64,000 bases of DNA, from positions 64,001 to 128,000 of the forward strand of contig CAZBPC010000002.1 of assembly GCA_964493715.1 (NCBI GenBank), written 5' to 3'. The translations under genes and the position numbers were made by a program. The stretch is from an uncultured archaeon (GTDB lineage: Archaea > Asgardarchaeota > Lokiarchaeia > Sigyniarchaeales > SOKP01). The stretch's first letter is position 1. Each line of letters starts with the position of its first letter. Below are positions 20,694 through 55,788 of the stretch, in pieces. A model generated the notes under the pieces. It worked only from the letters and a program-made list of their open reading frames with translations, was not told the origin of the DNA and did not search any database.

Positions 20694-21880
20694 ATGGCTA
20701 AAAATGTAAAGCGAATAGGAATTTTAACGGGTGGTGGAGTTTCATTTAAGATACATCTTTTTGAACCACAGACTGTCCCGGATTAAATTCAGTGATTTAT
20801 GGGATAATGCTGAAAGCTTACGATGCGGATGTAGAATGCGTAGGAATTCTAAAAGGATGGAAAGGTTTTGTTGAAAATTTAACGATTCCCTTAAACATTG
20901 CAGAACATGACGATCTTCATACCAAGGGAGGGACAATATTGTATACAAGTCGTACTAATCCATTTAAAGGAGTTGAGGCTAAAGAGGAAAAAGCAAAGCA
21001 ATTAACTAATCAATTCAATGTGTTAGGTATAGATGCATTAATTGCTATCGGTGGAGATGATACTCTTGGAGTAGCAGATACCATGTATAAAATTGCTAAT
21101 GCAAATGTAGTAGGGGTTCCAAAAACGATAGATAATGACTTGAAGGGTACTCATTACACTTTTGGGTTCTGGAGCGCTGTACAATTAGCTTCTAATGCGA
21201 TGGATAATCTCACAACAACCGCACGTTCACACCAGCGTGTTTTTGTAGTTGAGATTATGGGAAGAGATGCTGGTTTTTTAACCATGTATAGTGGAATTTC
21301 AGCAGGAGCTGATATAATATTGGTTCCTGAAACCCCCTTTAGTTTAGAAAAAGATATTGTTGACGTACTCAAAAAAAGAGCTAATGCTGGGTATAAATAT
21401 CACATCATTGCCACATCTGAAGGAGCTCATCCTCATATCGATTCATTAAATCGAGATTTCAAGACAATTTCAAAGGAAACAATTGATAAATTACCTAAAG
21501 ATACATTTGGGAATCCTTTATTAGCAAAGTTAAACATTTCACAAATTATCGTTGATGAATTAAATTTAAGAGACGATCTAAAAGAAGTATTTCTCCAAAA
21601 TGACGTCGAATTCGAATGCAGGAGCGTAGTTTTGGGACATACAATGCGAGCTGGAACACCTAATTCGTTCGATAGAATTTTGGGATTGAGATTTGGATTA
21701 GCAGCCATGAATATGGTTTTAGAGTCTAAATTTGGGAACATGGTTTCGCTTCAAGGTAATAAAATTAAAACCATGCCGCTTTCGGAAGGGGTAAAAAAGA
21801 AATATATTACCTCAGATAGTGATAAAATGGAATTAAGAGATTTACTTGTAAAAGTGCGGTATCTATCGAAACAAAAATAG
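20694..21880 (+). CDS. pfkA: 6-phosphofructokinase (PfkA family, probably PPi-dependent), join(20694..20739,20772..21880), 384 aa after splicing
   Basis: Exon 1 MAKNVKRIGILTGGG joins DCPGLNSVIYG to give the GGGDCPGLN motif; GGTILYTSR, GGDDT, PKTIDND, EIMGR, LGH..R. GGDD + PK signature suggests PPi use. Confidence 0.93.
20740..20771 (+). other. Putative bulge-helix-bulge (BHB) mRNA intron, 32 nt, in pfk
   Basis: Central helix GTGG(20734-37)/CCAC(20766-69); bulges AGT(20738-40) and AGA(20770-72); inner stems TTCA/TGAA and AAGA/TCTT; cuts AG^T and AG^A rejoin GGA G|AC TGT CCC. Confidence 0.85.
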
Positions 21881-22090
21881 AATTTTACGTCATTTTTTAT
21901 ATTTATCCGAACTGCTTTTCTTCTTCCACATCGCTATCAAGAGTATTTTTCTCTAAATATCTGTCAAGCCCATTTTACGTTAGAATACCACTTCCAGAAG
22001 GGGTAAAAAAGAAATATATTACCTCGGATAGTGATAAAATGGAATTAAAAGATTTGCTGGTAAAAGTTAGAGATTCATCTAAAAAATTAA
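21773..22090 (+). repeat. Diverged direct repeat of pfk 3' end (21773-21880 vs about 21985-22090)
   Basis: GAAGGGGTAAAAAAGAAATATATTACCTC(A/G)GATAGTGATAAAATGGAATTAA occurs twice, 212 bp apart; second copy reads IPLPEGVKKKYITSDSDKMELKDLLVKVRDSSKK. Confidence 0.93.
21903..21978 (-). pseudogene. Remnant of acyl-CoA dehydrogenase 3' end
   Basis: Minus strand reads KW(+1 nt)LDRYLEKNTLDSDVEEEKQFG*, matching [23 protein letters not shown] at the end of 23345..24589. Confidence 0.8.
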
Positions 22091-23307
22091 AATATTAAAT
22101 CCTTAGGCCTAACATCAGGAGCTTTAAGAAGAATTAACCCTGATATAACCGTTATACAAGCTGCTACTGCAAAAGGAGTCCATCCTATTATTTCTATTAG
22201 TGATCCTCCTCTCATTATTGTAATACTTGATAAATCTACAATATATCCCATAAATATCGGACCAAACACAAAACCTATATCTCCAATCGTACGATACACG
22301 CCCATATAAATTTCAAGTTTATCCTGAGGCGCAATATCAGTCACATAAGCAGCTATTGGCCCTGAAAGCCCAATCAAAGCTCCATAAATAAACATAACAA
22401 AAGAAATGTAAATCAGATTTGAAGTAAAAGGAATCCAAAGGGTTACTGGTGCAGAAACGACAAGTGATAATAAAAGAGGAGTTCGTCGCCCAATTTTGTC
22501 TGAAATCAAGCCAATAGGTAACATGGTAATTGTAGTTGCAATAGCCGCTATGGTTAATAATATACCAATATCAAATTCATTTAAACCAAGGTTATTACCC
22601 GAAAAAAGTGGTACAAGAGTGTTTCGCACTCCCGTCCGTATAAAGAATAACGAAAAAATTGAGGGAAGAACTGGAATGAATGATGGATCTCTTAAACTGA
22701 ACCTTACTTGATGATAGAGATCTTGAATCTTAATAGGTTCCTTTTCATTCGAATTATTCACTCTTGGCAACGTAAGAGTGGGAACGATCCCTATAGCAGA
22801 TATAATAGCATAAGCAAAAAATGGAGCGTTTATACCATATAAATCTGCAATAAAACCACCAAAACTTGGCCCAAAAATGGATCCCAATAATAAAAAACCA
22901 GAATAAATGCTCATTAAAAAACCTCGTCTTTCTGGGCTAGCAACTAATGCAATAAAAATGGTTGCAATTGTTACATAAATTGCAGAACCAAAACCTTCAA
23001 TAAATCGAGCTAAAAGTAAAATCCAATAATATTGAGCTGATCCCGCCAAAATTGAGGATCCCGATATGAGTATTAATCCCAAAAGCATCAAATTCTTTTT
23101 ATTATATCTTTGAGATAAGAAACCAGCTGGTAAATCAATGAACATGCGAGCAATTCCAAATGCAGACACCACAAGTCCAATAAGCGTATAATTAACATTA
23201 AAAGATTCGGCATAAAAAGGTAAAATTGGAGCAATTATGCTTAATCCCAATAATACGAGAAAGGTGACAACCGCAAGGTTTAATGTGATTATAAGGTCTC
23301 TTTTTAT
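22087..23307 (-). CDS. MFS transporter (DHA1-like)
   Basis: About 12 TM segments, GLISDKIGRR motif A; frame extends upstream of TTG 23250 through TM1 (IKRDLIITLNLAVVTFLVLLG) to a probable ATA start at 23307. Confidence 0.88.
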   Translation of the reverse strand: MKRDLIITLNLAVVTFLVLLGLSIIAPILPFYAESFNVNYTLIGLVVSAFGIARMFIDLPAGFLSQRYNKKNLMLLGLILISGSSILAGSAQYYWILLLARFIEGFGSAIYVTIATIFIALVASPERRGFLMSIYSGFLLLGSIFGPSFGGFIADLYGINAPFFAYAIISAIGIVPTLTLPRVNNSNEKEPIKIQDLYHQVRFSLRDPSFIPVLPSIFSLFFIRTGVRNTLVPLFSGNNLGLNEFDIGILLTIAAIATTITMLPIGLISDKIGRRTPLLLSLVVSAPVTLWIPFTSNLIYISFVMFIYGALIGLSGPIAAYVTDIAPQDKLEIYMGVYRTIGDIGFVFGPIFMGYIVDLSSITIMRGGSLIEIIGWTPFAVAACITVISGLILLKAPDVRPKDLIF

Positions 23308-23344
23308 ATCACATCTCCCCTTGTTATGATTTTAGCATAACTAA

Positions 23345-24589
23345 TTAACCAAAATGTTTTTCTTCTTGATGATCTGAATCAATTGCGTCTTTCTCAACAT
23401 CACGATCAACCCATTTTTCGCTTAGTAATTCTTTATAGTATTCATGTTGTATTATCATGTTCATGATCTCTGTGGTTCCCGTCCACAATTCACCTATCCT
23501 TGAATCGCGTAAAATTTTTTCGATGGGATAGACTGTGGTATAACCAATACCCCCCATGATCTGCATCGCATTGTTTATGACTTTCCAACAAGATTTAGTT
23601 GAAAATTTTTTCGATTCTGAGACTAACCTTCTTTGTAAAGCAGGTGGTGCTCCTGCATCAATCGTTCTAGCAGTATTAAGAACAATTGCTCTTGCAGCGT
23701 CTAAAAGTGTAATACTATCTGCAACTTTAAAATTTATTGCTTGGAAGTTTTTTATTGTTTGTCCAAAAGCTTTTCTTTTAGTTGAATATTTGGTAGCAAT
23801 ATGAAGACAAGTTCTTGCTGATCCTAATGAACCCGCTGCCGTTGTGAGACGTTCAGGAACCATCATTTGATAAAAAATTCTTCCTCCTTGTCCTTCTCCC
23901 ATAATGATATTCTCTTTCGGTACTTGAACATTTGTAAATTTGAGTCTTCCAGCACCCCCACCTCTAGTTCCTAATAAACCATAAATGTACTCCGTTTCTA
24001 CACCTTCGCTACGATCCACGATAAATAGACTAAGAGATGATCGAGAATCCGATTTCGGATCCAAGTTAGTTTTAGCATAAACTAAAAAAAAGTCAGCTCC
24101 CTCAGCTCCCACAACAAAACGTTTTTCCCCATTCAGGATATAATAATCCCCTTCTTTAACAGCGGTGCAAGTTGCTCCAAAAAAATCAGATCCTCCTCTT
24201 GGTTCTGTTAGAGCTTCTGCAGTATACTTTTTACCCTCACACATTGGCTTCAAGTAATTTAATTTTTGACCTTCAGAGCCAAATAAATTCATGGCTTCTC
24301 CAGTAATAATAGGAAGAGAATATAAGCATGGTAATGAGCTCCCAAGTACGCCTACTTCTTCAAGAGCAACAACTTCACATTCCCAATTTAAGCCTCGACC
24401 ACCAAATTCCTTGGGAAACCTTAATCCTATAAGATTTTTTTTGCCAAGATTCTGCAGGAATTCAGTTGGATAATTGATTTCTTCTTTATCCATTTTTTTA
24501 ATTAAGGTGTGAGGAACATCGTCTCTTACAAATGAACGTACTTCTTCTTTTATTTTTTTAGCATCTTCACTTATTATATAATCAAACAT
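23345..24589 (-). CDS. Acyl-CoA dehydrogenase
   Basis: [45 protein letters not shown]. Confidence 0.95.
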
Positions 24590-24811
24590 TCAAGATTCAC
24601 TTGATTAATTGTATTGTTCTATGATAATATATTCAAGATTATAATTATTTTTTATTATTTATTATATGTATCAAAATTAATTCATGAATTCATTCATACT
24701 TCACTTAAAGAATCTATTTTAAGTAGAAGTCGTTTTTATTCTAGGGTATAAATATCTGAATATATATAACTATATAAAAAAGTCATAAGAAAAATTATAA
24801 GTTAACCAATT

Positions 24812-26058
24812 ATGTTTACAAAAATAAAAAAAAATTATAAGAAATACCCAAATCCATTTAAAGTTCTGATTCTCGCCACATTCATCGATAGATTTGGAGG
24901 TTTTTTATTATTTCCCTTTTTTTCAGTGTCTCTTATAGAACATTTTAAAGTAACAATAATTGAGGTAGGATTTTTATTTTCTATATTTGCTGGTGGAAGC
25001 ATAATTGGTAGTACGATAGGAGGAGCATTAACTGATAAATATGGCCGTCGTTCGATGCTGTTATTAGGTTTAATTTCAAGTGGAATTGGTAGTATCTTAA
25101 TGGGTATAGTTAACGATTTATATCTTTTTTTATACTAGCAGCAGTTTTAGGCACATTAGGAGACTTGGGAGGTCCAGCCCGGCAAGCAATGGTTGTGGAT
25201 TTACTTCCAGAAGATAGACGAGCAGATGGATTTGGATTATTACGAGTGGCTGTAAATCTCGCAGCAGTAATGGGACCAATTCTTGGTGGAATGTTGCTAA
25301 ATAGTTCATATCTGTTCTTATTTATATTAGACGCAGTATGTCGCTTAATTACTGCCTTAATTGTATTCATAGTCATTCCAGAAACAAAACCTGAAAAACC
25401 AGAAGGCAAACTGGAAGAATCTGTAATGAAAACTATAGCTGGATATGAGGAGGTCCTTAAAGATGGATTGTATATATCATTTCTTTCCATTTCTGCTTTG
25501 ACGGTACTAGTTTACATGCAAATGAGCAGTACGTTATCGGTATTTTTGTGGGACGTGTACGAGTTTCCATTAAGCTTGTTTGGTGTGTTGTTGAGTATGA
25601 ATGCGCTGATGGTGGTATTCTTTCAGTTCTTGATAACTAGAATGACCGCAAAGTATGCACCCATGAAAATGATGGCTTTCGGCACACTTCTTTATATGAT
25701 TGGTTTTGGGATGTATGGTTTTGTCTCCTTACCATACTTGTTTTTCGTGGCTATGGCAATTCTAACAGTTGGAGAAATGATTGTAATACCCGTATCACAA
25801 GCTACAGTAGCTCATTTTGCTTCTGAAGATAAACGAGGGCGATATATGGCAGTGTTTGGTTTTCACTGGTCGATTCCAACCTTATTTGGAGTCTCAGCTG
25901 CTAGTTTTGTCTATATTTCGCTTGGTCCGAATTGGGTATGATATTTAGCTGGAATTTTATGCCTGATTGCTATCATCGGTTTTTTAATACTCAATGGTAT
26001 CGCAAAAGATCGTTTTTCGAATCCGACAGAAATTTTGGTTGAAAAATTTAGTGAATAA
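24812..26058 (+). pseudogene. MFS transporter, disrupted (frameshift plus in-frame stop)
   Basis: T7 run at 25125-25131 is one T short of joining DLYLF to FILAAVLGTLGDLGGPARQAM; TGA at 25939-41 (likely from TGG) is followed in frame by YLAGILCLIAIIGFLIL...EKFSE* to 26058. Confidence 0.8.
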
Positions 26059-26199
26059 CAAATATTCCATTGATTTTTTTACTTTTTTTAGAGATTATTA
26101 AGGTAATATAGAGATCTATCTTAAAGTATTACGAAGGTATATATTAAAGTGCGTGAAAGTTTAGTTTCACGAATTCATTAATGTAAAAAATCTTGAATT

Positions 26200-26496
26200 T
26201 TAAATCTCGAATATTTCTTTAGCTTTTTCTTCTATAATTTTGTTATTTACTAGATCCCATATTTCAGAGTAATAAAACTCATCATCATTTTTTACTATTA
26301 AAGGAATACTTTCTACACATGCACTCATATCGCAATATAGACTGTTAAAGGTCGGATTTTTCATCAAAGGATCATTAAAATCATTTGGATCTTGGTAATC
26401 AAGAATCTTATAATCAATGTTCTTATCTTTTAGCCATTCTTTCAAGATTTCACAGAAAACACAATGCTTCTTAATAACAATTTTAAATTTAGCCAT
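26200..26496 (-). CDS. Glutaredoxin-like protein
   Basis: KKHCVFCEILKEWL CxxC motif plus SIPLIV cis-Pro-like motif, 98 aa. Confidence 0.7.
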   Translation of the reverse strand: MAKFKIVIKKHCVFCEILKEWLKDKNIDYKILDYQDPNDFNDPLMKNPTFNSLYCDMSACVESIPLIVKNDDEFYYSEIWDLVNNKIIEEKAKEIFEI

Positions 26497-26547
26497 AATA
26501 AAATATATTTTAGTAATAATTTAAATTTTTATTTAAAAAAACCAATG

Positions 26548-27699
26548 CTAATCTTCAATTTCAAAAATAATCTTTAAGTATTCATATTTAGAATTGAGTA
26601 ATTTTAATATTTTACGAGAAAAATCTCTCAAATTTTTTGCGTGAATGGGTTTTTCTTCTGCTTGTTCATGGTAAAAATCATGCAGCATCTTTCTAGTTTC
26701 ATCTGGACCATTATCTTCTAAAAATTTAACCCAATGGGTCGATATTCTACAATATATCTTCAAATTCTCATCTGGATGTTTGGATTTATCAAAAATGGAA
26801 TCATTATATTTATTCAATTCACTACTCACTTTTTCAAGATGACTAGCGATTGCTAAAGAACTGCGACATAAACTGATTAAATTGGAGGTGGTTCTTGAAT
26901 TTCTAGTATTTACTGCTTCTTCGAATGCACTCCAACTTTCTAACCATTCATCTTTATGTATTCCTTCTTTTCCATCATTGATCATTGCTACATTTATAAT
27001 ATCGCTTAAATCAACATCATGACCTCTTTTGATTTTTTTATCAAAAATCTGTTTTAGATGTGAGCCTTCGAGAAAAGCACCTGCTCCAAAATCAAGCAAT
27101 TGATTAAGATTATTTGCAGCAAATAATAATTCATTTTTTTTTTCTTCTGAGTTAAGTTTTACCCAATTAACTTTCTTTTCCCATTCTCCAGTTTTTTTAT
27201 TTCTTATGAAATTACATTCCTTTAATTTCGAGTCTAAAAGACTAGTTTGGAACATCCAAAAATCAATATCATCAGTAAATCTTTTCCTTCTCCAATCTCT
27301 AGTGGTATATTTCCCAAGATATAACTTTAAAGTACCCCTAATTACGTTTAATTTCCCATTTTTCAAAGCATTACGCGCCTCTTTACAGTAATAGTGATTT
27401 GGATCATTTGAGCACAATTCTATTTTATTTAATACTTTTCTAGCTTCATTTGCAACAATATCACAAGGAATACTCCCATCAGATGGATAAGCTCTAGACC
27501 CCCCTCTTATAAAATCTTCAAATAAATCATATTCATCATCAGGAATCGAGTACCAAGGATTATTAAAAAAAAATTTTGTAAAGACATAATGAGTGAATTG
27601 ATTTTCATCTTTCCAAGTTTTTTCTACAATGGGAGAAACATCTCTAAGATTATCACCTTTTGCTCTAACATCAGCTTTTATATCCCAAATTCCATTCAT
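26548..27699 (-). CDS. Hypothetical protein, possible nucleotidyltransferase-fold
   Basis: 383 aa ORF; GT...RFTDDIDFW and KIKRGHDVDLSDI resemble DNA-pol-beta-like/AbiEii NTase motifs (inference). Confidence 0.5.
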   Translation of the reverse strand: MNGIWDIKADVRAKGDNLRDVSPIVEKTWKDENQFTHYVFTKFFFNNPWYSIPDDEYDLFEDFIRGGSRAYPSDGSIPCDIVANEARKVLNKIELCSNDPNHYYCKEARNALKNGKLNVIRGTLKLYLGKYTTRDWRRKRFTDDIDFWMFQTSLLDSKLKECNFIRNKKTGEWEKKVNWVKLNSEEKKNELLFAANNLNQLLDFGAGAFLEGSHLKQIFDKKIKRGHDVDLSDIINVAMINDGKEGIHKDEWLESWSAFEEAVNTRNSRTTSNLISLCRSSLAIASHLEKVSSELNKYNDSIFDKSKHPDENLKIYCRISTHWVKFLEDNGPDETRKMLHDFYHEQAEEKPIHAKNLRDFSRKILKLLNSKYEYLKIIFEIED

Positions 27700-27827
27700 T
27701 TGAAATTCTTTTTAGTTTAATATTACTAATAAAATTAAATGAACAAACCAAACTTAAATCTTTTTTCTATAAAATAAAGAAGTAATCAAGCATATAGTAT
27801 AAATAGAATATCTATTTCTTTCTCAAT

Positions 27828-28511
27828 ATGAAAGAACTCTTTTCAGTTTTTGTATATGCACCTTGGGATAAGCTCAAAACAAAGAAGCTAACAGAAATTA
27901 GATTATTATCTCTCAAAAGCATATTTGAAAAATATCCCGTAATTGAACGGAAATTTTTTGATGATCTATCAGAAAACATTAGCAAAAACATCCATTATTC
28001 TTGGTTCGAATGTATTAAAAGAATTGTAGGCCCTGACAAAGAAGATTATGAAATTCAAAGTTGGAATATTATTTGGGCAATGGATACGGATAATAGAATC
28101 TACCAATTCTTATTCCAAAAACTAGAGGATTCTGATGAATCTCAAGCAATTATGGTTGGTTTGGCTCCTCCAGAGCTTGGGAAGTTATTTTCAGAATATA
28201 GAGATGATGCAATTCTTAGGATTTTATCCGTATTGAATAATCCAACAAAATTAAAATTCTTGATGGGATTAGCTCCAAAAGGCATATCAATAGCTCAAGA
28301 ACAACAACTTATACAGGCTAATAAAAATAATCTGGACAAGATCAACTTCGTAAACTCACTAAAAGAACTACCAAACATCCAAGGGCAATGGTTTTTTCCT
28401 CGTAATCCAATGTGTCCATTTTGTAAAGGATTGCTGGTTGAGAAAATGGATTATGATATTAGTTGTCAAAAGCTAGTGTGTCCTCAATGCAACTATGAAA
28501 GAAAGAAATAG
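27828..28511 (+). CDS. Hypothetical protein with C-terminal zinc ribbon
   Basis: 227 aa ORF ending CPFC-x-CPQC. Confidence 0.65.
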   Translation: MKELFSVFVYAPWDKLKTKKLTEIRLLSLKSIFEKYPVIERKFFDDLSENISKNIHYSWFECIKRIVGPDKEDYEIQSWNIIWAMDTDNRIYQFLFQKLEDSDESQAIMVGLAPPELGKLFSEYRDDAILRILSVLNNPTKLKFLMGLAPKGISIAQEQQLIQANKNNLDKINFVNSLKELPNIQGQWFFPRNPMCPFCKGLLVEKMDYDISCQKLVCPQCNYERKK

Positions 28512-28592
28512 GATATTAACAATAACAATTTTATTAAATATTAGAATATATAATTTATAACGAAAAATATATTATTTTGGTAGATAATTAAC

Positions 28593-30122
28593 ATGCCATA
28601 TATTGTAGCACTCGATTTAGGCACCACAGGTTGTCGCACTTTTATATTTGACTTATCTGGAAGTATATTAGCAAGTGATTATCAAGAATGGGAGAGTATT
28701 TATCCTGCTCCATCACATGTAGAGCAAGATGCAAATGTTTGGTGGGACTCAATTAAAAGAACAATTGAGAGAGCTATTAAGAAGAGTGGTATTGATAAAA
28801 CTGAAATTGTCAGTTTATCCATAACAAATCAGAGAGAAACTATTGTTCCTGTAGATAAAATGGGAAATCCTTTACACAATGCGCTAGTTTGGCAAGATAG
28901 AAGAACAACGGAACAAGTTGAATATATCAAGAAAAAAATTGGCGTTGAAAAGATATATAAAACAACTGGTTTAACCATAGATCCATATTTTTCCGCTACT
29001 AAAATACTTTGGTTTAAAAATAATAAACCTGAAATCTATAACCAAACTCACAAATTTTTATTGGTCTCAGATTTCATAATACATAAACTCACGGGACAGT
29101 TTGTAACTGATCATTCAAATGCTTCACGAACCATGCTTTTCGATATAAACAATTTGAAATATTCTGAAGAAATTGCTTCTGAATTGGAAATTGACCTTGA
29201 TAAAATGCCAGAATCAATGGAAAGTGGAGTTGATGTTGGAGAAATCGTGTCCAACGAGACTGATTTTGATAAGAAGACGTTAGTTATCACTGGAGCTGGA
29301 GATCAACAATCAGCAGCATTAGGAGTGGGTGTGGTATCACCAGGGGAGATTAAATGCACAACTGGGACGGGTAGTTTTATCCTCGCCTTCCTAGAAGAAC
29401 CTAAATTTGATCCTGAGAGAAGAGTCTTATGTAGTTGTCATGCTGTACCAGGAAAATGGGTTCAAGAGGCAAGCATTTTTACTTCAGGAGCTGTATTAAG
29501 ATGGTTTAGAGACCAAATTGCTGTTGATGAATGTCAAAAAGCTGAAGAATTGGGTCAAGATCCTTATGAAATAATGACATCGGAAGCTGAAAAATCCCCC
29601 ATAGGGTCTAATGGGCTGCTTTTTATACCTCATTTAGTAGGAGCAGGAGCACCTCATTGGAATCCTTATGCAAAGGGAATTTTATTCGGTTTATCACTAG
29701 GTCATCAAAGAAAAGATCTTTATAGAGCAGTTTTAGAAGGAGTAGCTTATGAAGTAAAAAAAAATATTCTTGTTTTTAAATCTCTAGGAATAGATCCGAA
29801 AGAATTAAAAATTACTGGAGGAGGTTCTCGTTCTGATTTATGGAATCAAATATATGCTGATACCTTAGGAATATCTTGTGTAAGAAATGTTAATGAAGAA
29901 GCTACATCTTTGGGGGCAGCAATATTAGCCGCATATGGAGCAGGGTTATTTCCAAATATATCTAAAGCTGCAGAAAATATTTGTAAAGTTGATAAACGAT
30001 GGTCTCCAAATGAAAATCACGCTGAGATTTATGATAAAATATTCCGTTTTTCAAACAGATTGTATTCAATTCTGAGTGAAAATGAGGTTTATAAGAACTT
30101 TAATGATATATTTCAAATTTGA
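28593..30122 (+). CDS. FGGY carbohydrate kinase (xylulokinase/glycerol kinase-like)
   Basis: DLGTTGCR, TNQRET, WQDRRT, SNASRTML, GAGDQQ, GAPHW, GGGSRS. Confidence 0.93.
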   Translation: MPYIVALDLGTTGCRTFIFDLSGSILASDYQEWESIYPAPSHVEQDANVWWDSIKRTIERAIKKSGIDKTEIVSLSITNQRETIVPVDKMGNPLHNALVWQDRRTTEQVEYIKKKIGVEKIYKTTGLTIDPYFSATKILWFKNNKPEIYNQTHKFLLVSDFIIHKLTGQFVTDHSNASRTMLFDINNLKYSEEIASELEIDLDKMPESMESGVDVGEIVSNETDFDKKTLVITGAGDQQSAALGVGVVSPGEIKCTTGTGSFILAFLEEPKFDPERRVLCSCHAVPGKWVQEASIFTSGAVLRWFRDQIAVDECQKAEELGQDPYEIMTSEAEKSPIGSNGLLFIPHLVGAGAPHWNPYAKGILFGLSLGHQRKDLYRAVLEGVAYEVKKNILVFKSLGIDPKELKITGGGSRSDLWNQIYADTLGISCVRNVNEEATSLGAAILAAYGAGLFPNISKAAENICKVDKRWSPNENHAEIYDKIFRFSNRLYSILSENEVYKNFNDIFQI

Positions 30123-45082: not shown

Positions 45083-45156
45083 CGATTTGTATATAGTTGT
45101 TTATTATTTAATTTATTTATGAACATAAACATTTAAGCTAATAAATTTGTATTTAA

Positions 45157-46828: not shown

Positions 46829-47182
46829 TTACTGATAAAGTACACAAACCATTATTGTAAAACCCCAGGGTGAATTTTCCTTTTCATAAATCAAGCTTTT
46901 GACTTCTTCATGCGGGGCTATTCCGGTATTATCTGAAAATAATTTCCAAGCAAGTTTTCCTATTATTTCTTCTTCCTGCAAGATTTCAAGAAAATTCTGC
47001 TTAATTCCCCCCCAATATATCCGCTTTACGTCCATAATTTCCTTTAATTCAGATAATTCCATTAATCCTGCAAAAATGAGATTTTCTGTAACATTAGAGA
47101 AATGTGTAATAAAATTAGCTGAAACATCTTGAGGGGATCCCTCATTTCGATCATATAAAAATACTAATCCAATCGCTTTCAT
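46829..47182 (-). CDS. Hypothetical protein
   Basis: 117 aa ATG-started ORF filling the gap; no motif recognised. Confidence 0.6.
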   Translation of the reverse strand: MKAIGLVFLYDRNEGSPQDVSANFITHFSNVTENLIFAGLMELSELKEIMDVKRIYWGGIKQNFLEILQEEEIIGKLAWKLFSDNTGIAPHEEVKSLIYEKENSPWGFTIMVCVLYQ

Positions 47183-47409
47183 GATGTTATAGAAATGAAT
47201 TATGTTAATTATATTCAGTAATTTAGAGTAATTATAACTTGAGGTTATTATTTAAAACTTCTTATCCAAAAAGTAAACCATAAAGTAAAAATCAGAAAAT
47301 ATTTGTTTATACAATTATATTTTATTATCAAAGCAAATAAGGTATTATTAATATTTATGAAATGAATTAATAACCTTACTTACCTGAAATTAATAATTAA
47401 GTTGATTAC

Positions 47410-47865
47410 ATGTCAGAAATAATGGATAAATTTATTGGAAAACTTTATGATAAAGCTGAAATTGAAAATTGGAATTTACCAGAAAAGACTAAGGAACAAA
47501 TTGGTCTAAAAGAAAATAAGTACTTTTTTTTAACCTCTTCACGAGAGGAAAAACACGGAATGAGGCATGTACATTTCTCCATATATCCAACAAAGTATGA
47601 AAAGGTTTATTTTATTTTTGTTAAATTGCCAGAAATTAAGCCTCAAATATTGAGCAATGTATTAAATTATTTAAAAAAGTCTAATTTTGATATATTCAAC
47701 TCAACGGGTTTTTGCTCTCAGGAAAATACCTGCTTTTTCGGTATATACTTCTCCTTTTATGAAGATCTTAATAAAGGCAAAATAATTGGAGATGTGGGTG
47801 AATTTAAAAACATCCAAGAAGTTAAATTATTTAAATATACTTGTATAGGATGTAATGAAGAATAA
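47410..47865 (+). CDS. Hypothetical protein, C-terminal ACT-like domain possible
   Basis: 151 aa; PQILSNVL..LKK..DIFNSTGFC pattern resembles ACT-like folds (inference). Confidence 0.55.
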   Translation: MSEIMDKFIGKLYDKAEIENWNLPEKTKEQIGLKENKYFFLTSSREEKHGMRHVHFSIYPTKYEKVYFIFVKLPEIKPQILSNVLNYLKKSNFDIFNSTGFCSQENTCFFGIYFSFYEDLNKGKIIGDVGEFKNIQEVKLFKYTCIGCNEE

Positions 47866-48291
47866 TTACCAAAACGCTTTTTGGAATTTTTGAATCGTTT
47901 CTTCCAAACTGTCCTCGATTTCTTTTTCAAAATCATGGAAAATTGCTACATCTCCTTCCCACGTTTCCAAGATTTCTATTGGATATAAATCGAAAAAATG
48001 GTCAACTATTGATTGCAATTCTTCAATTACTTTTTTCATTTTGATTTTATTAGAAGAACTTGCCACGAATAGTATGTCATATTTCCTTATTAGAGTATAT
48101 CTTTTGTCTTGTAATTCAAAATTAGAAAGCCCCTCATTTGTTAATTCTTCTGCGAAGGAATTTAAAGCACTCATAAGTCCCCCAAATAGCTGATCATCAA
48201 ATTTTTCATTAAAAATACGATGATATAGCACGATACCTCCTTCCGAAATTATATAGAGATCTTGCAAGACCTTAACCAAGATATTCACCAA
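47866..48291 (-). CDS. Longin/roadblock-like small protein (Asgard type)
   Basis: LYIISEGGIVLY...QLFGGLMSALNSFAEEL...F..FEKEI pattern typical of Asgard longin-like proteins. Confidence 0.7.
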   Translation of the reverse strand: MVNILVKVLQDLYIISEGGIVLYHRIFNEKFDDQLFGGLMSALNSFAEELTNEGLSNFELQDKRYTLIRKYDILFVASSSNKIKMKKVIEELQSIVDHFFDLYPIEILETWEGDVAIFHDFEKEIEDSLEETIQKFQKAFW

Positions 48292-48379
48292 AAAAATTGA
48301 TGTATGAATATTATATTTTGAAAACGTCTTAAATTTATAGTTACAAAATTAAAATTAAAAAAAAATTTTTCGCTAGTAT

Positions 48380-49123
48380 TTATTCGCTTGTTTTTGGCCG
48401 AATATACCCAAAATATGACGCTATCATTCCTAACAACACGAAAATCCACGCTAAAAAATAAAACGGAGAAAATCCAGGTCCACCAAAAAGGATTAATAGT
48501 CTATCGATCAAAAAATTAAACGGTACTAGTATATAAAAGATGGACATCAAAGCTAATGATATAAATGCATTTTTGAAAGTTTTCCCTTCAGCTAACTTGA
48601 AAGATTTATATGAACTTATAAAGAATGGAACATAAATCATTGCCATGAATAGGAATATCAACAAGAATGCGAATGCATCCAGCAGAGTATTTCCTCTTTC
48701 ATATACTAGCAAACTGAATGTTAAAGTGATAATCCCGTAAATAATCACGATTATCTTATGAACTCGATTGTATCCCTTTTCGAAAACATTTACTTTCAAA
48801 ACATAGGATATAAAAATAGCAATAGTTAGGAAGAAAAAACTAAATCGAAAATCAGTGATTCTCAAAACGAACCAAGACTGTATAGTTCCCGGATCAGCAA
48901 GAGTAGTATTGTAAATGTATTCTACTCCCGAATATAATACTAGAACTTTAGATAACCATGAAAAGATTATAGCAATCATGTAAAACAAGAATATCAAGAA
49001 TAAGTATAGAGTAAATTGGTGTTTTTTTTGGAAATATTTCATTAATATTAAACCAAGTATAAATGCAGCTATGATAATAATCGTTGTTTCAAATACCATG
49101 CCAATGAATATTAAATCGGGCAT
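48380..49123 (-). CDS. Hypothetical 7-TM membrane protein
   Basis: 247 aa with about seven hydrophobic segments. Confidence 0.7.
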   Translation of the reverse strand: MPDLIFIGMVFETTIIIIAAFILGLILMKYFQKKHQFTLYLFLIFLFYMIAIIFSWLSKVLVLYSGVEYIYNTTLADPGTIQSWFVLRITDFRFSFFFLTIAIFISYVLKVNVFEKGYNRVHKIIVIIYGIITLTFSLLVYERGNTLLDAFAFLLIFLFMAMIYVPFFISSYKSFKLAEGKTFKNAFISLALMSIFYILVPFNFLIDRLLILFGGPGFSPFYFLAWIFVLLGMIASYFGYIRPKTSE

Positions 49124-49316
49124 ATTAAAATCATAAAATTTGCATTATTTATACTTTAAGTTTACCAAATAAAATAATTCAAGTTGGATTAAAACTTTAG
49201 TATAAATATTATAATATTAATTTAAAACATTTTTTTGATTCCGAACCACATCAAAAATTTTATTGCTTTTTCAATATTTTAAGCTATTGTATCAATAAAT
49301 CTATTATACCTCCAAT

Positions 49317-50240
49317 ATGATATCCACTATGACAACATACCATCAGGAATTGAAATTAGCAACCGAAATTGTAAATACAGCTTCAAAAATAACTGAATGG
49401 TTTAGAAATGTTGGTTTCCAATCTTTTCAGAAAGAGGATGATTCTCCTGTAACTATCGCTGATTATGCGAGTCAAATATATATAATTAATAAGATCTCGG
49501 AACAATTTCCCGAAGATCAAATAATTGCTGAAGAAGATGATAATTCTTTTTTTGATAATGAAGTAAAAAGATCGATTAATTCTTGTTATAAATCTTTAAA
49601 TATTGGAGAAAATATCAATATTGAAAAAGCAATAATCGCGAAAGATAACAAAAAAACCTCCCGTCAGTGGACAATAGATCCAATTGATGGTACAAAAGGG
49701 TTCCAGAAAGGATTATCATATGCAATAGGTATAGGGTTTATGATAAATTCCGATCCAAAAATATGTGCAATCGCAGTTCCAAACTATAAGAAATATGGTA
49801 AAGCAATTTTTATCGCTGAAAAAGATAACGGTAGTAAAGTTGCTATTGAAGCTTTAAAGTTCAAAAAAATTAAAGTAAGTAATCAATTTCAGCTTAAACA
49901 AGCTAAATTGTGCCATTCATTGCACTATGATGAACCTTGGGTTATGGATTTTGCATCACGGGCGGAAATAACAAATTTCATTCAAATAGACAGTATGGTT
50001 AAATTTTGCATGGTTGCCGATGGAACTGCTGACTTGTATGTAAAACCAATGAATCCAAGTAGATCTTTTGTTTGGGATTTCCTTCCTGGAATCTTGTTAG
50101 TGCAAGAAGCTGGAGGAACTGTTACTGATTTGCGTGGAAACTCAATTGAATTTAATGATGATAAATGCATACTAACAACACCCGGATTGATCGCATCTAA
50201 TTCTATAATCCATAGTGATATTATAGCAAAATTAGCGTGA
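49317..50240 (+). CDS. Inositol monophosphatase family, 3'(2'),5'-bisphosphate nucleotidase-like
   Basis: KEDDSPVTIADY, AEE, WTIDPIDGTKGF, VWD...VQEAGG.VTD. Confidence 0.9.
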   Translation: MISTMTTYHQELKLATEIVNTASKITEWFRNVGFQSFQKEDDSPVTIADYASQIYIINKISEQFPEDQIIAEEDDNSFFDNEVKRSINSCYKSLNIGENINIEKAIIAKDNKKTSRQWTIDPIDGTKGFQKGLSYAIGIGFMINSDPKICAIAVPNYKKYGKAIFIAEKDNGSKVAIEALKFKKIKVSNQFQLKQAKLCHSLHYDEPWVMDFASRAEITNFIQIDSMVKFCMVADGTADLYVKPMNPSRSFVWDFLPGILLVQEAGGTVTDLRGNSIEFNDDKCILTTPGLIASNSIIHSDIIAKLA

Positions 50241-50264
50241 TCTGAAATTTTTAAGAAAAATGGT

Positions 50265-51353
50265 TTACCCTTTTAAATAACTAAGTAAATCTTTTTGAAT
50301 AATGGTTGATCTCGAAATCAAATTCGATAATTTGATTCCAACTAATCTAATTTTACGTTTGTCATTGGAAAATTCTTTAAACAATTCGAGAATTATCTTG
50401 ATTGTTTTTTCCTTGTTTTGTGTATGATTTGGAAGCGTCTTAGATCGAGTAAATGTTAAAAAACCTTCCAGTCGAATTTTTAAAGTAATTGTCTTATAGG
50501 AAATATTATCATTCTTGACTTTTTTATGGAGTTTTTCATTAATTTCATCAAATTTTGTTAATATCTCTTGAAAATCATTTGTATCTTTAAAAAATGTTCT
50601 CTCCTTGCTTATCGATTTTCTTTCCCTCATTGAATTCTTTACTTCTCTTTTATCCATTCCATTCGCAATATCCCAAACCCATTTTCCATTTTTTCCGAAT
50701 TTTTCTATCATTCTGTGAAGGGGAGTATTAATTATGTCTCCGATAACTTTAATTCCTTGGTTATTATAATATTCTTTGGATTTTTTTCCAATTCCAGGAA
50801 TGCGAGTAATATCCAAGGGTGATAAGAATTCCTTGAATTTCTCTGGTTTTACAATAGTGATACCATTAGGCTTTTTAAAATCTGAAGCTATTTTTGCAAT
50901 TGATTTAGTAGGAGCACATCCAATTGATAGGGTTATTCCCACCTCATCTAAAACTCTACTTTGAATTTCTTTTGCAACAATGAATGCATCCTCATAAGTT
51001 CTGCAGTTTTCAGAGATATCTATATATGCTTCATCAATACTAACTTGCTGAAAAATTGAACTGACTGAATTTATGATTCCCATTACCTTTTCTGAAGCTT
51101 CTTGGTATTTTGTAAAATCAGGACGTAAATATATACCATAAGGGCATTTTTTATATGCAATTGAAATTGGCATTGCGGAGTGAAGACCATATTTTCTCGC
51201 TTCATAATTACACGTAGAAACCACTCCCCTTCCTTTTCCAGCTTTAGGATCTGCTCCAACTATAACGGGCTTATCTTTATAATCTGGATTATCTCTAACC
51301 TCAACAGCAGCGAAAAAAGCATCCAAATCGCAATGTAGGATTATTTGATTCAT
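50265..51353 (-). CDS. dinB: DNA polymerase IV (Y family)
   Basis: HCDLDAFFAAVE, CNYEARKYG, SIDEAYID, AKIASDFKKPNG, IPGIGKK. Confidence 0.96.
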   Translation of the reverse strand: MNQIILHCDLDAFFAAVEVRDNPDYKDKPVIVGADPKAGKGRGVVSTCNYEARKYGLHSAMPISIAYKKCPYGIYLRPDFTKYQEASEKVMGIINSVSSIFQQVSIDEAYIDISENCRTYEDAFIVAKEIQSRVLDEVGITLSIGCAPTKSIAKIASDFKKPNGITIVKPEKFKEFLSPLDITRIPGIGKKSKEYYNNQGIKVIGDIINTPLHRMIEKFGKNGKWVWDIANGMDKREVKNSMRERKSISKERTFFKDTNDFQEILTKFDEINEKLHKKVKNDNISYKTITLKIRLEGFLTFTRSKTLPNHTQNKEKTIKIILELFKEFSNDKRKIRLVGIKLSNLISRSTIIQKDLLSYLKG

Positions 51354-51507
51354 ATTTTTAATTAGAGGAATTAATAACCAATTTCACAAGCATAAAGTGT
51401 TTTTATTAATATAAAAAATGCCTCATCAAGAATTTTTTAATTTGGAAAGTTTAGTATTTATTGGACATAAGCAAAATCTATTTATTTCAAATATTAAAAT
51501 CAAATAT

Positions 51508-52185
51508 ATGAGTTTAATTGATGAAGATCAAATGCGTTTAGTGATAGTGAACGCATCAAAAAAGATATATAGCAGAGGATTAGTTCAAGCAGGAGAGGGT
51601 AATTTAAGCCTTAGAATCCCTGGTAAAAATGAAATGTTTATCACTCCTACTTACAATACTTATGAAGACTTACAAAAAGCAAATTTAGTGCAAATCAATT
51701 TTGATGGCATCCTTGTAAATTCCACGAGACAACCCTCTTCAGAATACAGATTACATGTTGATTTATATAAAGCGCGTCCCAAGGTGATGGCAATCATCCA
51801 CACTCACTCACCCTATGCTACAATGCTTTCTGTTGCTAGAATGAAAATTCCAGTTTTAATTGAAGAGCAAGTCATATTTCTTGGTGGTCATATCGATGTT
51901 TCCGAGTTTGCTTCTGCCCATACTGAAGAATTTAGTAATAATGCAATAAAAGGACTAGGAACAAGAAATGCAACTTTGATGGCTAATCATGGAGTTCTAG
52001 CTTGTGGTAAATCAATGAGTGACGCTATTAAAATGGCAGAATTAGTAGAAAAATTAGCTTGGATTTATTATGGTGCAAAATTAATGGGTGGTCCCGTAAG
52101 TATTTCTGATAAATCTTGCCCTATGTTTATTGAAGTGTTTGAAGAAAAATTTGCCACACATGAAAAGTTAATTAGTGATTGTTAG
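51508..52185 (+). CDS. Class II aldolase/adducin family (FucA-like)
   Basis: GEGNLS, PSSEYRLH, IIHTHS, MANHG. Confidence 0.92.
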   Translation: MSLIDEDQMRLVIVNASKKIYSRGLVQAGEGNLSLRIPGKNEMFITPTYNTYEDLQKANLVQINFDGILVNSTRQPSSEYRLHVDLYKARPKVMAIIHTHSPYATMLSVARMKIPVLIEEQVIFLGGHIDVSEFASAHTEEFSNNAIKGLGTRNATLMANHGVLACGKSMSDAIKMAELVEKLAWIYYGAKLMGGPVSISDKSCPMFIEVFEEKFATHEKLISDC

Positions 52186-52226
52186 GTTTGAATTAGCTTT
52201 TTTAATCTTTTTTAATTTATTTATAT

Positions 52227-52901
52227 ATGGAACCAGAAAAAATTAGGGAATTGAGAAATGCTGTTGTAGATGCCGCTAAATCGATTTTTTCTAAAGGTTT
52301 GGTTGAAAATAATGAAGGTAATGTTAGCATCCGTGTTGGGAAAAATGAAGAATATTTAATTACTCCAACCGCAAATCAATATGATACACTCACCGAAGAT
52401 CAGATTGTTCATATGGCTTTTGATGGAACTCCTTTAAGTTCTGGAAAATTGCCATCAAGTGAAACCAAACTACATACAGCAATTTTTAAATCAAGACCAA
52501 AAGTTCAATGCGTTATTCATACCCATTCAACCTTTGCCACAATGCTATCAGTTGTAAGAAAAGGTATCCCAATAATAATGGAGGAACAAATAATTTATTT
52601 AGGGGGGTCCATTGATGTGTCAAATTATGGAGAAGCTCATACTGATGATATTGGAGAAGTTGCCCTTAAAGCTTTAGGTTATAAGAATGGTGCGATATTA
52701 GCAAATCATGGAGTTATAGTATGTGGGAAATCGGCTTCTAATGCAATAAAAAACGCAGAATTAGTTGAAAAATTCGCAAAGATCTATTGGGGAAGCCTTC
52801 TTATTGGAGAGCCTCAACTCTTGATTGATGAGGATTTAGAAAGATTTCATAAAATGTTTCAACAATTATTTGCTAATTGCCCAAGAAAATTATTAAAATA
52901 A
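52227..52901 (+). CDS. Class II aldolase/adducin family (FucA-like), tandem paralog
   Basis: NEGNVS, PSSETKLH, VIHTHS, LANHG. Confidence 0.92.
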   Translation: MEPEKIRELRNAVVDAAKSIFSKGLVENNEGNVSIRVGKNEEYLITPTANQYDTLTEDQIVHMAFDGTPLSSGKLPSSETKLHTAIFKSRPKVQCVIHTHSTFATMLSVVRKGIPIIMEEQIIYLGGSIDVSNYGEAHTDDIGEVALKALGYKNGAILANHGVIVCGKSASNAIKNAELVEKFAKIYWGSLLIGEPQLLIDEDLERFHKMFQQLFANCPRKLLK

Positions 52902-52917
52902 ACCTAAAGAAGAAATC

Positions 52918-53745
52918 ATGTTATTAGGGATTAGTACTTTAGCACATTTAATAGACAATGTCTCCAAAAAAACTGGTAGTCTTTTTGATAATTTTTTTAA
53001 AGCAACAGAAGGTTGTTTTAATTTTGCTGAAGAAAATGATATTCTTGTTGTAGAAATTGTTATAGAACCTCAGACTATCATTAGAGGTGAAAATAAACAT
53101 AAATTCATTGATTTAGTTAACTCATACTCGCTTCAAAAACAAGTGCATGGACCTTATATCGATATCAATTTATGTTCTCATAATAATACTATTTCTATGG
53201 CATCAGTTGAATCATATTTAGAAACGTATAATATCTGTAAAGAAATTAATATTAATCTGATGACCGTTCATCCGGGACAAGCCAACCCCATGATGACTTC
53301 AATAGGATAATATAATAAAATACAGCTTGCAGAAGGTGTATCGAAAATATTAGACACAATTAATAATTCAGAGTTTACGATTTGCCTTGAGAATATGCCA
53401 AAAAGCACATTTATTATGCTTGATCAGAATGATATTGAAGTTGTTCTAAAGAAAATTAATCGATCTGATTTAAAATTGACCTATGATACTAGTTATTTCT
53501 ATACTAATGATGGTAATATTAAGTTTTATGGGATAAATATCATAAAATTATTAAACATGTCCACCTTGTTGAAAACTTTTCAAAATTTTCAGATACTCAT
53601 CCAACCTTAGGGACTGGAAAAATTAATTTCCAAGAAATTTTCAATCAACTCAAAAAATTTCAATATGGGGGATCTTTAATTATTGAATTAGCATCATCGA
53701 TTAATCTACAAACGAGTATTCAATATATTTATCAATTTTTAAAGT
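52918..53745 (+). pseudogene. Sugar-phosphate isomerase/epimerase (xylose isomerase-like TIM barrel), disrupted; end approximate
   Basis: VHGPYIDINL, TVHPG, LENMP, YDTS, HVHL..DTHPTLGTG motifs; in-frame TAA at 53308-10 and frameshift at T4 53524-27. Confidence 0.8.
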
Positions 53746-53819
53746 TAGTTAGAAGGGAACATTATTTTCTTTATTTTCGTTTAAAATTTATAATAAAATC
53801 TACCTTAATAATTGTAATT

Positions 53820-54212
53820 ATGAAAATAATTTCTTTGCAAATTAGCGATGATTTATTAGTTAGATTTGAAAAAGTTAGATTCAGAAGTGGATTTAATTCA
53901 AAAAGTGAAGCCTTGAGGGATGCAATTGTAAAATTCATTGAGAATTATGAGAAATTTGAAAATCTGAATGGATATAAGATAATGACAATAAATTTGGTTT
54001 ATCCATTTAAAAATATCATATCAGATGAGATTTCAGAATTATATAACCAATTCAACGCGATTATAAAAGCAATTACTGATTGGAGAATTGTAGAAAAAAA
54101 AATAGAAGTTGTATTAACAGTGGGAGAATTTGGACTTATTAAGGATTTGTATCAATCTCTGGCCAAAATAAAAGATGTATCTTGCTCAATTCATGAGATT
54201 GTTATCGATTAA
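53820..54212 (+). CDS. NikR/CopG family ribbon-helix-helix regulator
   Basis: MKIISLQISDDLL...GFNSKSEALRDAI plus C-terminal ACT-like domain; Ni-binding His residues not evident. Confidence 0.82.
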   Translation: MKIISLQISDDLLVRFEKVRFRSGFNSKSEALRDAIVKFIENYEKFENLNGYKIMTINLVYPFKNIISDEISELYNQFNAIIKAITDWRIVEKKIEVVLTVGEFGLIKDLYQSLAKIKDVSCSIHEIVID

Positions 54213-54221
54213 ATTGTTCAA

Positions 54222-55091
54222 TTAGTCAAATCGAAGTGAAATATCGACTTTTTCAGGAGGAAATTGGGTTAATTCACTGGAGCTTATAATATCTGGTTCA
54301 GCAATCACATAATCGACGAAATTTTCTAATGTAATACCTCCTGAAACTTCAATTATTACCATTCCACGAACTTTATTCCTTTTCAATGTACTAATTGCAT
54401 TCCCTACTTGATCAGGGGTCATATTATCGAGCATGATGATGTCTGCCCCTAATTTAGCTGCAATTAAAACATCTTCAACCCTTTCAATTTCAATTTCAAT
54501 TTTTTTTGTGAAACTAGCACTCTTTTTTATTTCTCTCATCATTTCCTCTATGTTTCCATTGTAATATTTTAAATGTGTATCTTTCAATAATATCATATCA
54601 TCGAGTGAAAAACGATGTGTTTCCCCTCCACCGAGAAAAACTGCTTTCTTCTCAAAAATACGCAATCCTGGAAGCGTTTTACGTGTACATGCTATCTTTA
54701 CAGCTTTTCCAGAATTTTTAATAATTTCTACATACTTACGAGTAGTAGTAGTTATGGCACTCATATGAGAGAGCAAATTTAGAGCTGTTCGTTCTCCAAA
54801 TAGTATTGATTGTGTTTCTCCTTTTAGATGGGCAAGGATATCTCCTTTCTTCACTCGATCTCCATCTTCTTTAACAAGGTTCACGGATACATTTAAAATG
54901 TCATATATTAAATTCAATTCTTCTAATCCACTAATATAACCACTGCTTTTTGCTATAACTTTTGCAGAACTAATTGCAATTTCGGGAATTATACTTGAAC
55001 TCACGTCACTGAAATGACAATCTTCTTCAAGAAATTCTCTAATTTTTCTCTCTAAAATTAAGTTATTAAACTTCACTTTGATGATCACCAA
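54222..55091 (-). CDS. nadC: Nicotinate-nucleotide pyrophosphorylase (carboxylating)
   Basis: ERTALN, TRKTLPG, HRFSLDD..LLKDTH, IMLDN, EVSGGI. Confidence 0.95.
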   Translation of the reverse strand: MVIIKVKFNNLILERKIREFLEEDCHFSDVSSSIIPEIAISSAKVIAKSSGYISGLEELNLIYDILNVSVNLVKEDGDRVKKGDILAHLKGETQSILFGERTALNLLSHMSAITTTTRKYVEIIKNSGKAVKIACTRKTLPGLRIFEKKAVFLGGGETHRFSLDDMILLKDTHLKYYNGNIEEMMREIKKSASFTKKIEIEIERVEDVLIAAKLGADIIMLDNMTPDQVGNAISTLKRNKVRGMVIIEVSGGITLENFVDYVIAEPDIISSSELTQFPPEKVDISLRFD

Positions 55092-55131
55092 CTGTAGTAT
55101 AATTATTATAGAATCAAATCTAATTAAAATT

Positions 55132-55788
55132 ATGCTAATGATTCAAGGTAATGAAGTATCTTTAGAAGCGGAGATTTTTCAGTCAGGAAATGAATTTAAC
55201 AATACTGTAGTCTTAATATGCCATCCTCATCCTCAATTTCTGTAGGGTTTCCTAAGAAAGGGAAAATATGGAGGATCGATGCATAATAATGTTATATCTT
55301 ATATTTTCAATCATTTAGTTAAAAATGATATCTCGTGTTTACGTTTCAATTTCAGAGGTGTAGAAAGATCAACTGGAAAACATTCAGGAGGAAGTGGAGA
55401 GTTATCTGATGTTCATAGTTGTATTACATTTCTCCAAAAAAGAGAGATACAAAGGATAATAATATGTGGGTATTCTTATGGTGCCGCTATCGGATGCTCA
55501 GCTGTAAATTTTTCAGAATCAATCATAGGATTCTGCGCGATTTCTTTTCCGTGGGATTTTATGGGAAAAAATTACAAAAATCTCTCACAAACTGAAAAAC
55601 CTAAACTATTTATTCAAGGGGATCAAGATTCTATTGCTAGTTTTGATAATTTCTTGTCTCATTATAATTTCTATAAGGAACCCAAAGAAAAAATTATTAT
55701 CAAGGGAGCTGATCACTTCTATTGGGGATTAGAAGGAATTTTAGCAGATAAAGTGGTTAAATTTGTAAAAAAGTTCAATCCATCTTAA
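55132..55788 (+). CDS. Alpha/beta hydrolase, join(55132..55235,55266..55788), 208 aa after splicing
   Basis: Exon 1 MLMIQGNEVSLEAE...VVLICHPHP joins QYGGSMHNNV to give the family motif CHPHPxxGGxMxN; LRFNFRGV, GYSYG nucleophile elbow, QGDQD, GADHF. Confidence 0.9.
55236..55265 (+). other. Putative bulge-helix-bulge (BHB) mRNA intron, 30 nt, with in-frame TAG
   Basis: Central helix TCCT(55230-33)/GGGA(55260-63); bulges CAA(55234-36) and AAA(55264-66); inner stems TTTCT/AGAAA and TAGG/CCTA; cuts CA^A and AA^A rejoin CCT CA|A TAT GGA GGA. Confidence 0.83.

Follow-up and report, generated by a model that had tools for sequence, protein, structure and literature searches.

Candidate bulge-helix-bulge micro-introns in protein genes of a Lokiarchaeia-type Asgard archaeon

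According to the available part of PMC2738675, the pre-mRNA of the crenarchaeal cbf5 gene (Desulfurococcales, Sulfolobales) contains an intron of 16–44 bp that forms a relaxed or unconventional bulge-helix-bulge (BHB) motif and is cut between the second and third bulge residues, an activity ascribed to a hetero-oligomeric EndA. The same part of that source reports that the intron has been gained and lost among related species and that, as of 2009, splicing had been confirmed for no other archaeal protein gene. Further archaeal BHB introns, including those of certain Asgard classes whose tRNA genes are intron-rich, are described in bioRxiv 10.64898/2026.10.13.758758 and PMC11291895, whose available parts concern tRNA genes only. 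Here we analyze a window of 64,000 nucleotides (G000:C2:64001-128000, where G000 is the genome under study and G001 onward are the other genomes compared) in which pfk and an alpha/beta hydrolase gene are each interrupted by a short hairpin-forming insertion. Judging from the sequences, these insertions, and a dozen similar ones elsewhere in G000, are very probably mRNA introns of the EndA/RtcB type.

Like the cbf5 intron, the insertions are short, lie in protein genes, form a relaxed BHB motif, obey the same cut rule and are gained and lost among relatives. Whereas cbf5 is a single gene of Crenarchaeota, G000 belongs to an Asgard lineage and has at least 12 interrupted genes with up to three introns each, and its introns lie in genes of central metabolism, of translation and of the splicing ligase itself. 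Thus, the mechanism would be that of cbf5; what is new is the scale, the lineage and a set of genes that includes the ligase. The cbf5 gene of G000 is an uninterrupted frame of 343 aa that contains both TruB_N stretches and no stops. With the BHB introns of archaeal tRNA and rRNA genes the insertions share the motif and presumably the enzymes, but they are part of an mRNA, codons make up the exon half of their motif, and recognition has no tRNA body to rely on. A third comparison is offered by the eukaryotic HAC1/XBP1 mRNAs, which are cleaved by IRE1 and ligated by RtcB or Trl1. There too a very short mRNA intron is removed without the spliceosome, a tRNA ligase joins the exons and the reading frame is altered; the nuclease, however, is IRE1 acting on twin stem-loops in one regulated transcript, as opposed to BHB motifs in many housekeeping genes. 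A preliminary description of this DNA, made from the sequence, had known of no such introns in Asgard archaea, and our full-text literature searches, the coverage of which is incomplete and leaves out most subscription journals and supplements, likewise turned up no account of Asgard protein genes with BHB introns.

The pfk and hydrolase micro-introns and their counterparts in relatives

We enumerated the BHB geometries around the breaks in both genes and obtained one protein-compatible solution for each (all coordinates of these two genes are window positions on the + strand). In pfk, exon 1 (20694–20739) comprises 15 codons plus the first base of an Asp codon and encodes MAKNVKRIGILTGGG. It is followed by a frame-shifting micro-intron of 32 nt (20740–20771), placed by the enumeration and by comparison with continuous orthologues, and by exon 2 including the stop codon (20772–21880), which matches positions 10–276 of the 277 positions of the Pfam PFK profile (E=2.7e-83). 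Read without excision, the frame starting at ATG 20694 yields MAKNVKRIGILTGGG followed by unrelated codons and a stop at 20784–20786, whereas a second frame, open from 20765, reads DCPGLN... through to the stop codon ending at 21880 and lacks only the first few positions of the PFK profile. Excision of 20740–20771 gives GGA G|AC TGT and restores the motif GGG|DCPG exactly. The exon strand of the central helix (GTGG, 20734–20737) forms four Watson-Crick pairs with CCAC at 20766–20769. The 5′ bulge AGT (20738–20740) would be cut after 20739, and the 3′ bulge AGA (20770–20772), which together with the intron strand of the central helix occupies 20766–20772, would be cut after 20771. Between them lies the intron hairpin or inner helix h′ (20741–20765), in which 20741–20744 pair with 20762–20765 and 20748–20751 with 20756–20759. 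The outer helix consists of the single pair 20733/20773, followed by 20728–20731 paired with 20777–20780.

The hydrolase gene presents the same anatomy. Exon 1 (55132–55235) starts at ATG 55132 or 55138 and ends in ...CHPHPQ(CA), the micro-intron of 30 nt (55236–55265) carries an in-frame TAG and was delimited by BHB enumeration and by intron-less orthologues, and exon 2 including the stop codon (55266–55788) matches Pfam Abhydrolase_11 (E=9.1e-10). The unspliced gene would encode ...VVLICHPHPQF up to TAG at 55243–55245, and the same frame reopens at GGSMHNNV.... Excision of 55236–55265 gives CAT CCT CA|A TAT GGA GGA, restoring HPHPQ|YGGSM exactly. The exon strand TCCT (55230–55233) of the central helix pairs with GGGA (55260–55263) through one G.U pair and is invariant in all 16 sequences compared. 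The bulges are CAA (55234–55236, cut after 55235) and AAA (55264–55266, within the 55260–55266 segment that starts with the intron strand of the helix, cut after 55265). In the hairpin (55237–55259), 55237–55241 pair with 55255–55259 and 55243–55246 with 55251–55254, while the outer helix again starts with a single pair (55229/55267), followed by 55223–55228 paired with 55271–76. These results bear out what the preliminary description had proposed, namely a 32-nt and a 30-nt insertion within conserved motifs, the stated BHB architecture in both genes, including an outer helix of one base pair followed by a shifted stem, and restoration of frame and motif in both when each bulge is cut behind its second nucleotide.

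To place the host, we compared the pfk loci nearest to that of G000 in named genomes (n=80). They showed 72–88% protein identity and belonged nearly all to Promethearchaeota/Promethearchaeia, a phylum held by the kingdom that NCBI calls the "Asgard group"; the host is therefore an Asgard archaeon, as the preliminary description had supposed. The G000 assembly measures 3.68 Mb in 160 contigs (100% complete, 3.85% contamination, GC content of about 31%).

We then surveyed the presence and absence of introns among relatives, as the preliminary description had advised, and found that whether an intron occupies the pfk, hydrolase and rtcB sites depends on the species; it was at these three sites that the spread outside the genus was compared. 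At pfk site 1, the site interrupted in G000, an insertion occurred at the identical point in 5 of 21 other congener loci and in 16 of 79 readable named loci, two sets that overlap, while the gene was continuous (GGxGGxGGx|GAY) in 16/21 congener loci and in all eight out-of-genus loci. A second pfk site (IGG|DDT), absent from G000, contained 30-nt insertions with stops in 6/21 congener loci and 15/79 named loci. The hydrolase intron was present in 16 of 22 genus loci (30 nt in three, 31 nt in three and 33 nt in ten) and absent from the other six and from 8/8 out-of-genus loci. The rtcB intron, described below, was confined to G000 and G001 among 29 readable orthologous loci. At all three sites the insertion boundaries were base-exact with respect to intron-less orthologues, and the same insertions recurred across many independently assembled genomes.

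Comparison of the intron-bearing sequences revealed that the pairing is maintained while the bases change. For pfk, the 15 distinct sequences fell into two hairpin types and kept the motif in every case. The central helix GTGG/CCAC of G000 is replaced in others by GCGG with CCGT, TCGT or CCGC, and is paired in 15/15; from one hairpin type to the other, both partners are exchanged in the first two pairs of the inner helix. Standard pairs filled 99.4% of the aligned pair cells, compared with at most 53.9% when the 3′ partners were slid by 1–3 columns, and three pairs were compensatory, including a T-A to C-G change in the central helix. For the hydrolase (16 sequences), standard pairs filled 91.9% of the cells (at most 73.6% after sliding by 1–3 columns), and five pairs of the intron hairpin covaried, with 14 cells altered on both sides; the central helix and its flanks were invariant and the loop was variable. 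The covariation score was reached by none of 500 shuffles for either gene, with the caveat that the structures tested were derived from these same related sequences.

The exons are under purifying selection. Between G000 and intron-bearing orthologues, dN/dS was 0.08–0.22 for the hydrolase exons (13 of 15 pairs with unsaturated dS) and 0.04–0.06 for the pfk exons (5/6 pairs), and no exon stop was present in any of the 21 comparisons (15 for the hydrolase and six for pfk). Together with the occurrence of the introns in several species, these values (0.04–0.22 overall) and stop-free exons answer a doubt raised in the preliminary description, that the exons might show pseudogene-like decay.

Along about 60 kb of synteny between G000 and five congeners, the protein-gene introns were those of pfk sites 1 and 2 and of the hydrolase, with no others. 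Within this syntenic region, G012 and G016 also differed in a tRNA intron. About 23.5 kb into the region on G016:C70, a major-facilitator transporter gene beside pfk shifts frame at a T run without a BHB motif, likely a 1-nt frameshift or an assembly error. Several features surround pfk in the window. A free-standing LAGLIDADG-type endonuclease ORF (19653–20609, + strand; Pfam LAGLIDADG_3 E=2.3e-8, LAGLIDADG_1 E=1.8e-5) ends 85 nt 5′ of the pfk start, and the flanks 5′ of pfk appear different in relatives. Just 3′ of the pfk stop, the C-terminal 35 residues of pfk are duplicated with 80% identity (window 21982–22086, + strand; G000:C2:85982-86086) within an open frame of 90 aa.

Further introns in the genome and the splicing machinery

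The preliminary description had suggested from two cases in 64 kb that more introns would exist genome-wide. More do exist, although two cases do not set a density. A scan of G000 for BHB motifs whose excision joins open frames, followed by inspection of the peptides across the junctions and by Pfam matching of candidates, yielded 12 additional introns of 29–31 nt in 10 further genes, all of the same architecture. The trait is thus genome-wide in G000, with at least 14 introns in 12 genes; these numbers are minima, and the finds favor introns with a stop or a frame shift and families with recognised motifs.

One of the further genes is rtcB itself (C2:10967-12540, − strand), which lies about 52 kb before the start of the window and is split by a 29-nt intron with a strict BHB motif (C2:12136-12164; helix TTGG/CCAA, bulges ATA and AGA, 9-bp hairpin). 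Excision joins ...SPGGVG-Y|DINCGVR, and the Pfam RtcB match runs over 1–46|48–426 in two frames 29 nt apart. The Pfam coordinates likewise continue across the junction of leuS (tRNA-synt_1g, 4–46|48–135), nadE (NAD_synthase, 3–143|144–242), a paralogue of EF-2 (GTP_EFTU, 9–37|48–187), an acyl-CoA synthetase gene (AMP-binding, 9–208|223–312) and rps8 (Ribosomal_S8, 2–43|93–126). A thiolase gene directly after an HMG-CoA synthase-like gene (G000:C28:22053-23331, + strand) contains three micro-introns of 31, 30 and 30 nt and becomes a stop-free ORF of 395 aa only after three excisions (Thiolase_C_1, 14–49|52–143, across a junction). In all, such continuity over the junction was found in eight genes. 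The remaining finds are a second thiolase gene on contig C145 (one intron; exon 1 matches Thiolase_N 3–52), the beta subunit gene of a 2-oxoacid:ferredoxin oxidoreductase (OFOR; one intron) and a Ras-like GTPase gene (one intron). The last is the one gene with an in-frame stop among the 84 Ras-family matches in G000, and this ratio hints that close to 1% of genes may be interrupted.

At the cut sites defined by the rule, conserved motifs were exactly restored in the 14 cases. All 14 introns (29–32 nt) follow one design: one bulge base, a hairpin of about 22–25 nt (mostly a 9-bp stem with a loop of 4–5 nt), four bases that can pair with the exon, and finally two bulge bases. BHB geometry was found in 14/14, with all four central pairs in 11 and three of four in the other three, and the inner helix h′ was strong, usually 9 bp. 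The 11 introns compared before those of thiolase i/ii and the GTPase were added showed no mutual sequence similarity, and none recurred elsewhere in the genome, leaving the idea of a repeated mobile-element family unsupported. No second copy of rtcB or rps8 was found in G000, which is estimated to be 100% complete. At rps8, short open frames were seen in G003, G004 and G023 and not in the three closest relatives, which suggests that these three genomes may have the rps8 intron as well.

Several candidates of the scan were set aside. The cysS, nifS-like, HMG-CoA synthase, HSP70 (C159) and msrA genes proved to be ordinary uninterrupted or neighbouring genes, as did, by reading, the actin-like gene and rpS12; leuC/leuD, hisB/hisH and other pairs were read as adjacent genes and not as introns. 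The genome has two HSP70 genes, on the very small contigs C159 and C160, which may represent contamination or an unassembled region. An HdrA-like candidate on the minus strand of contig C39 (index 10960 on the reverse strand) has an in-frame stop and was not taken as an intron. This TGA is probably a selenocysteine codon instead, as it stands at what we take to be the place of the CxxC/Sec motif after FPT(N/D)D in relatives.

Both enzymes named in the preliminary description as the likely agents are encoded in G000, which has two EndA genes (PF01974) and RtcB; an archease gene (C2:10541-10960) adjoins rtcB. The EndA product of contig C5 (207 aa) aligned end to end and without gaps with Aeropyrum pernix chain 3p1z_B (E=1e-36), while that of C58 (205 aa) matched EndA chains more weakly and is without the His. 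The C5 protein carries what we take to be the Tyr/His/Lys positions of the catalytic subunit. Its sequence thus points to an EndA alpha subunit, and that of the C58 product to a beta subunit. According to the available part of PMC5829648, Asgard archaea have an (alpha-beta)2 EndA with an insert in loop L1, and only such enzymes cut relaxed motifs. The G000 enzyme would accordingly be of the type that accepts relaxed motifs, an assignment in which the broad-specificity loop rests on PMC5829648 and on the presumed position of that loop. ARAGORN found only 27 tRNA genes in G000, 12 of them with anticodon-loop introns of 11–39 nt, including four of 29–30 nt, which suggests that many tRNA genes of this genome are interrupted at non-canonical positions.

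From these elements the following pathway can be proposed. The gene would be transcribed together with its insertion of 29–33 nt, and the four exon-1 bases that precede the 5′ bulge would form a helix with four bases of the insertion close to its 3′ end. What remains of the insertion would fold into a hairpin, typically of 9 bp with a loop of 4–5 nt, leaving two 3-nt bulges on opposite strands. An EndA of the heterotetramer type (alpha from C5, beta from C58) would cut between the second and third nucleotides of each bulge, and RtcB, with archease, would ligate the exons, so that only the ligated mRNA would encode the full protein. The RtcB product would then be required to mature its own mRNA, a self-dependence that inherited RtcB protein could carry.

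Weighing of the intron interpretation against its rivals

The interpretation as introns is based on the anatomy of the DNA, motif restoration, covariation, presence and absence among species, purifying selection and the presence of the enzymes. Several points weigh against it. The further introns were initially picked out visually through familiar motifs and tested afterwards, and two of the 12 genes have no Pfam support on one side (exon 1 of OFOR-beta, exon 2 of the C145 thiolase) and rest on motif reading. We enumerated 1.57 million BHB-like motifs on both strands of G000 and counted those that join open frames, with cut sites shifted by 1–3 nt as controls. The ORF-joining motifs of G000 showed no overall excess over these controls (16,010, for example, where the controls averaged 16,190), and in one comparison the count of the strong-hairpin set fell below its controls. 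The lack of an overall excess can be explained because adjacent genes on the same strand swamp the count. A modest excess was seen among long-hairpin introns of 29–33 nt (15 where the mean was 9.6; 19 compared with 9–14), and the length histogram had roughly ten surplus cases at 30 nt. Since the frame-joining statistic is noisy, we give no genome-wide total.

The motif itself is not uniformly strong. Outer helix h has 0–4 contiguous pairs or is interrupted in the 14 introns, which are thus relaxed motifs, and it showed no covariation in pfk or in the hydrolase; at pfk site 2 of the congeners, the central helix has 2–3 pairs. A weak outer helix fits the relaxed BHB forms described in PMC5829648. 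As for the process, cleavage and ligation, their timing with respect to translation and any regulatory use are what we infer from the DNA. The circular dependency of an rtcB mRNA that needs RtcB is a real puzzle. Moreover, archaeal translation can begin on nascent RNA, so that unspliced messages should give truncated peptides.

The puzzle of rtcB bears on the first alternative, in which the insertions are excised from the RNA by way of their hairpin, by a nuclease and/or a ligase other than EndA and RtcB, such as another structure-specific RNase or a second ligase. The interruption of rtcB in both G000 and G001, which seemingly needs a ligase-independent start, would favor such enzymes, as would the weakness of the outer helix. 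However, four base pairs between two 3-nt bulges, cut after the second nucleotide, constitute the EndA rule and were found in 14/14 introns, and RtcB protein inherited by the cell would keep the loop going. We consider the involvement of other enzymes unlikely.

A second alternative does without RNA cutting: the ribosome would hop over the hairpin of about 30 nt, or read through the stop. Ribosomes hop over gaps of comparable length in phage T4 gene 60 and in the byps of yeast mitochondria, and hopping requires matching take-off and landing codons. The insertions resemble these gaps in being short hairpins inside ORFs that are absent from the protein, and several of them have a stop soon after the take-off point. 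By contrast with gene 60 and the byps, matching take-off and landing codons are absent here: the codon that closes the exon and the final three bases of the intron differ in all six phase-0 introns (GAC/AAA, GAT/AAA, AAT/TAA, GAT/TAA, ATG/AAA and GAA/AAG). Nor could a hop account for pfk, the hydrolase gene, rtcB and others, where bases flanking the gap on either side together make up the restored codon (G|AC, CA|A, T|AC). In addition, exon 1 is tied to the 3′ end of the insertion by a covarying helix whose 3-nt bulges are constant, which is the motif of EndA and not a hop signal. Read-through is excluded by the 31-nt hydrolase introns, the length of which is not a multiple of three, any more than that of the 32-nt form. 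Bypassing and recoding are therefore very improbable explanations for the insertions.

Finally, although gene callers would call such genes truncated or frameshifted and the assembly consists of 160 contigs with 3.85% contamination, it is hardly credible that the insertions are sequencing or assembly artefacts or marks of decaying pseudogenes, because they recur in many separately assembled genomes with boundaries that are base-exact relative to intron-less orthologues, affect the single-copy genes rps8 and rtcB, and interrupt intact exons with dN/dS of 0.04–0.22, a conservation, selection and recurrence that exclude artefact and decay.

Significance for Asgard archaea and RNA biology

Taken as a whole, the results make it probable that in an entire Lokiarchaeia-type genus some core genes (for glycolysis, a ribosomal protein, an aminoacyl-tRNA synthetase, NAD synthesis, small GTPases and RtcB) are expressed by way of spliceosome-independent mRNA splicing, with dozens of species-specific BHB introns of 29–33 nt that have been gained and lost and with a self-dependent loop at rtcB. 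For annotation, this means that such genes are called truncated, frameshifted or pseudogenes, and metabolic reconstructions of Asgard archaea may miss enzymes (here pfk, nadE, thiolases and an acyl-CoA synthetase). For RNA biology, archaeal mRNA splicing by EndA and RtcB had rested on one crenarchaeal gene, and at least 14 introns make its specificity, timing and any regulation testable. The patchy distribution of the introns at the species level offers a rare view of ongoing gain and loss.

According to a long-standing idea, it was introns in protein genes that drove transcription and translation apart. If the insertions are introns, they would form the first intron-bearing repertoire of protein genes in the closest prokaryotic relatives of eukaryotes, and a natural case of splicing forced to compete with coupled translation. 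For eukaryogenesis, an Asgard lineage that has interrupted protein genes and no nucleus would thus pose the question of how the ribosome is kept off unspliced messages.

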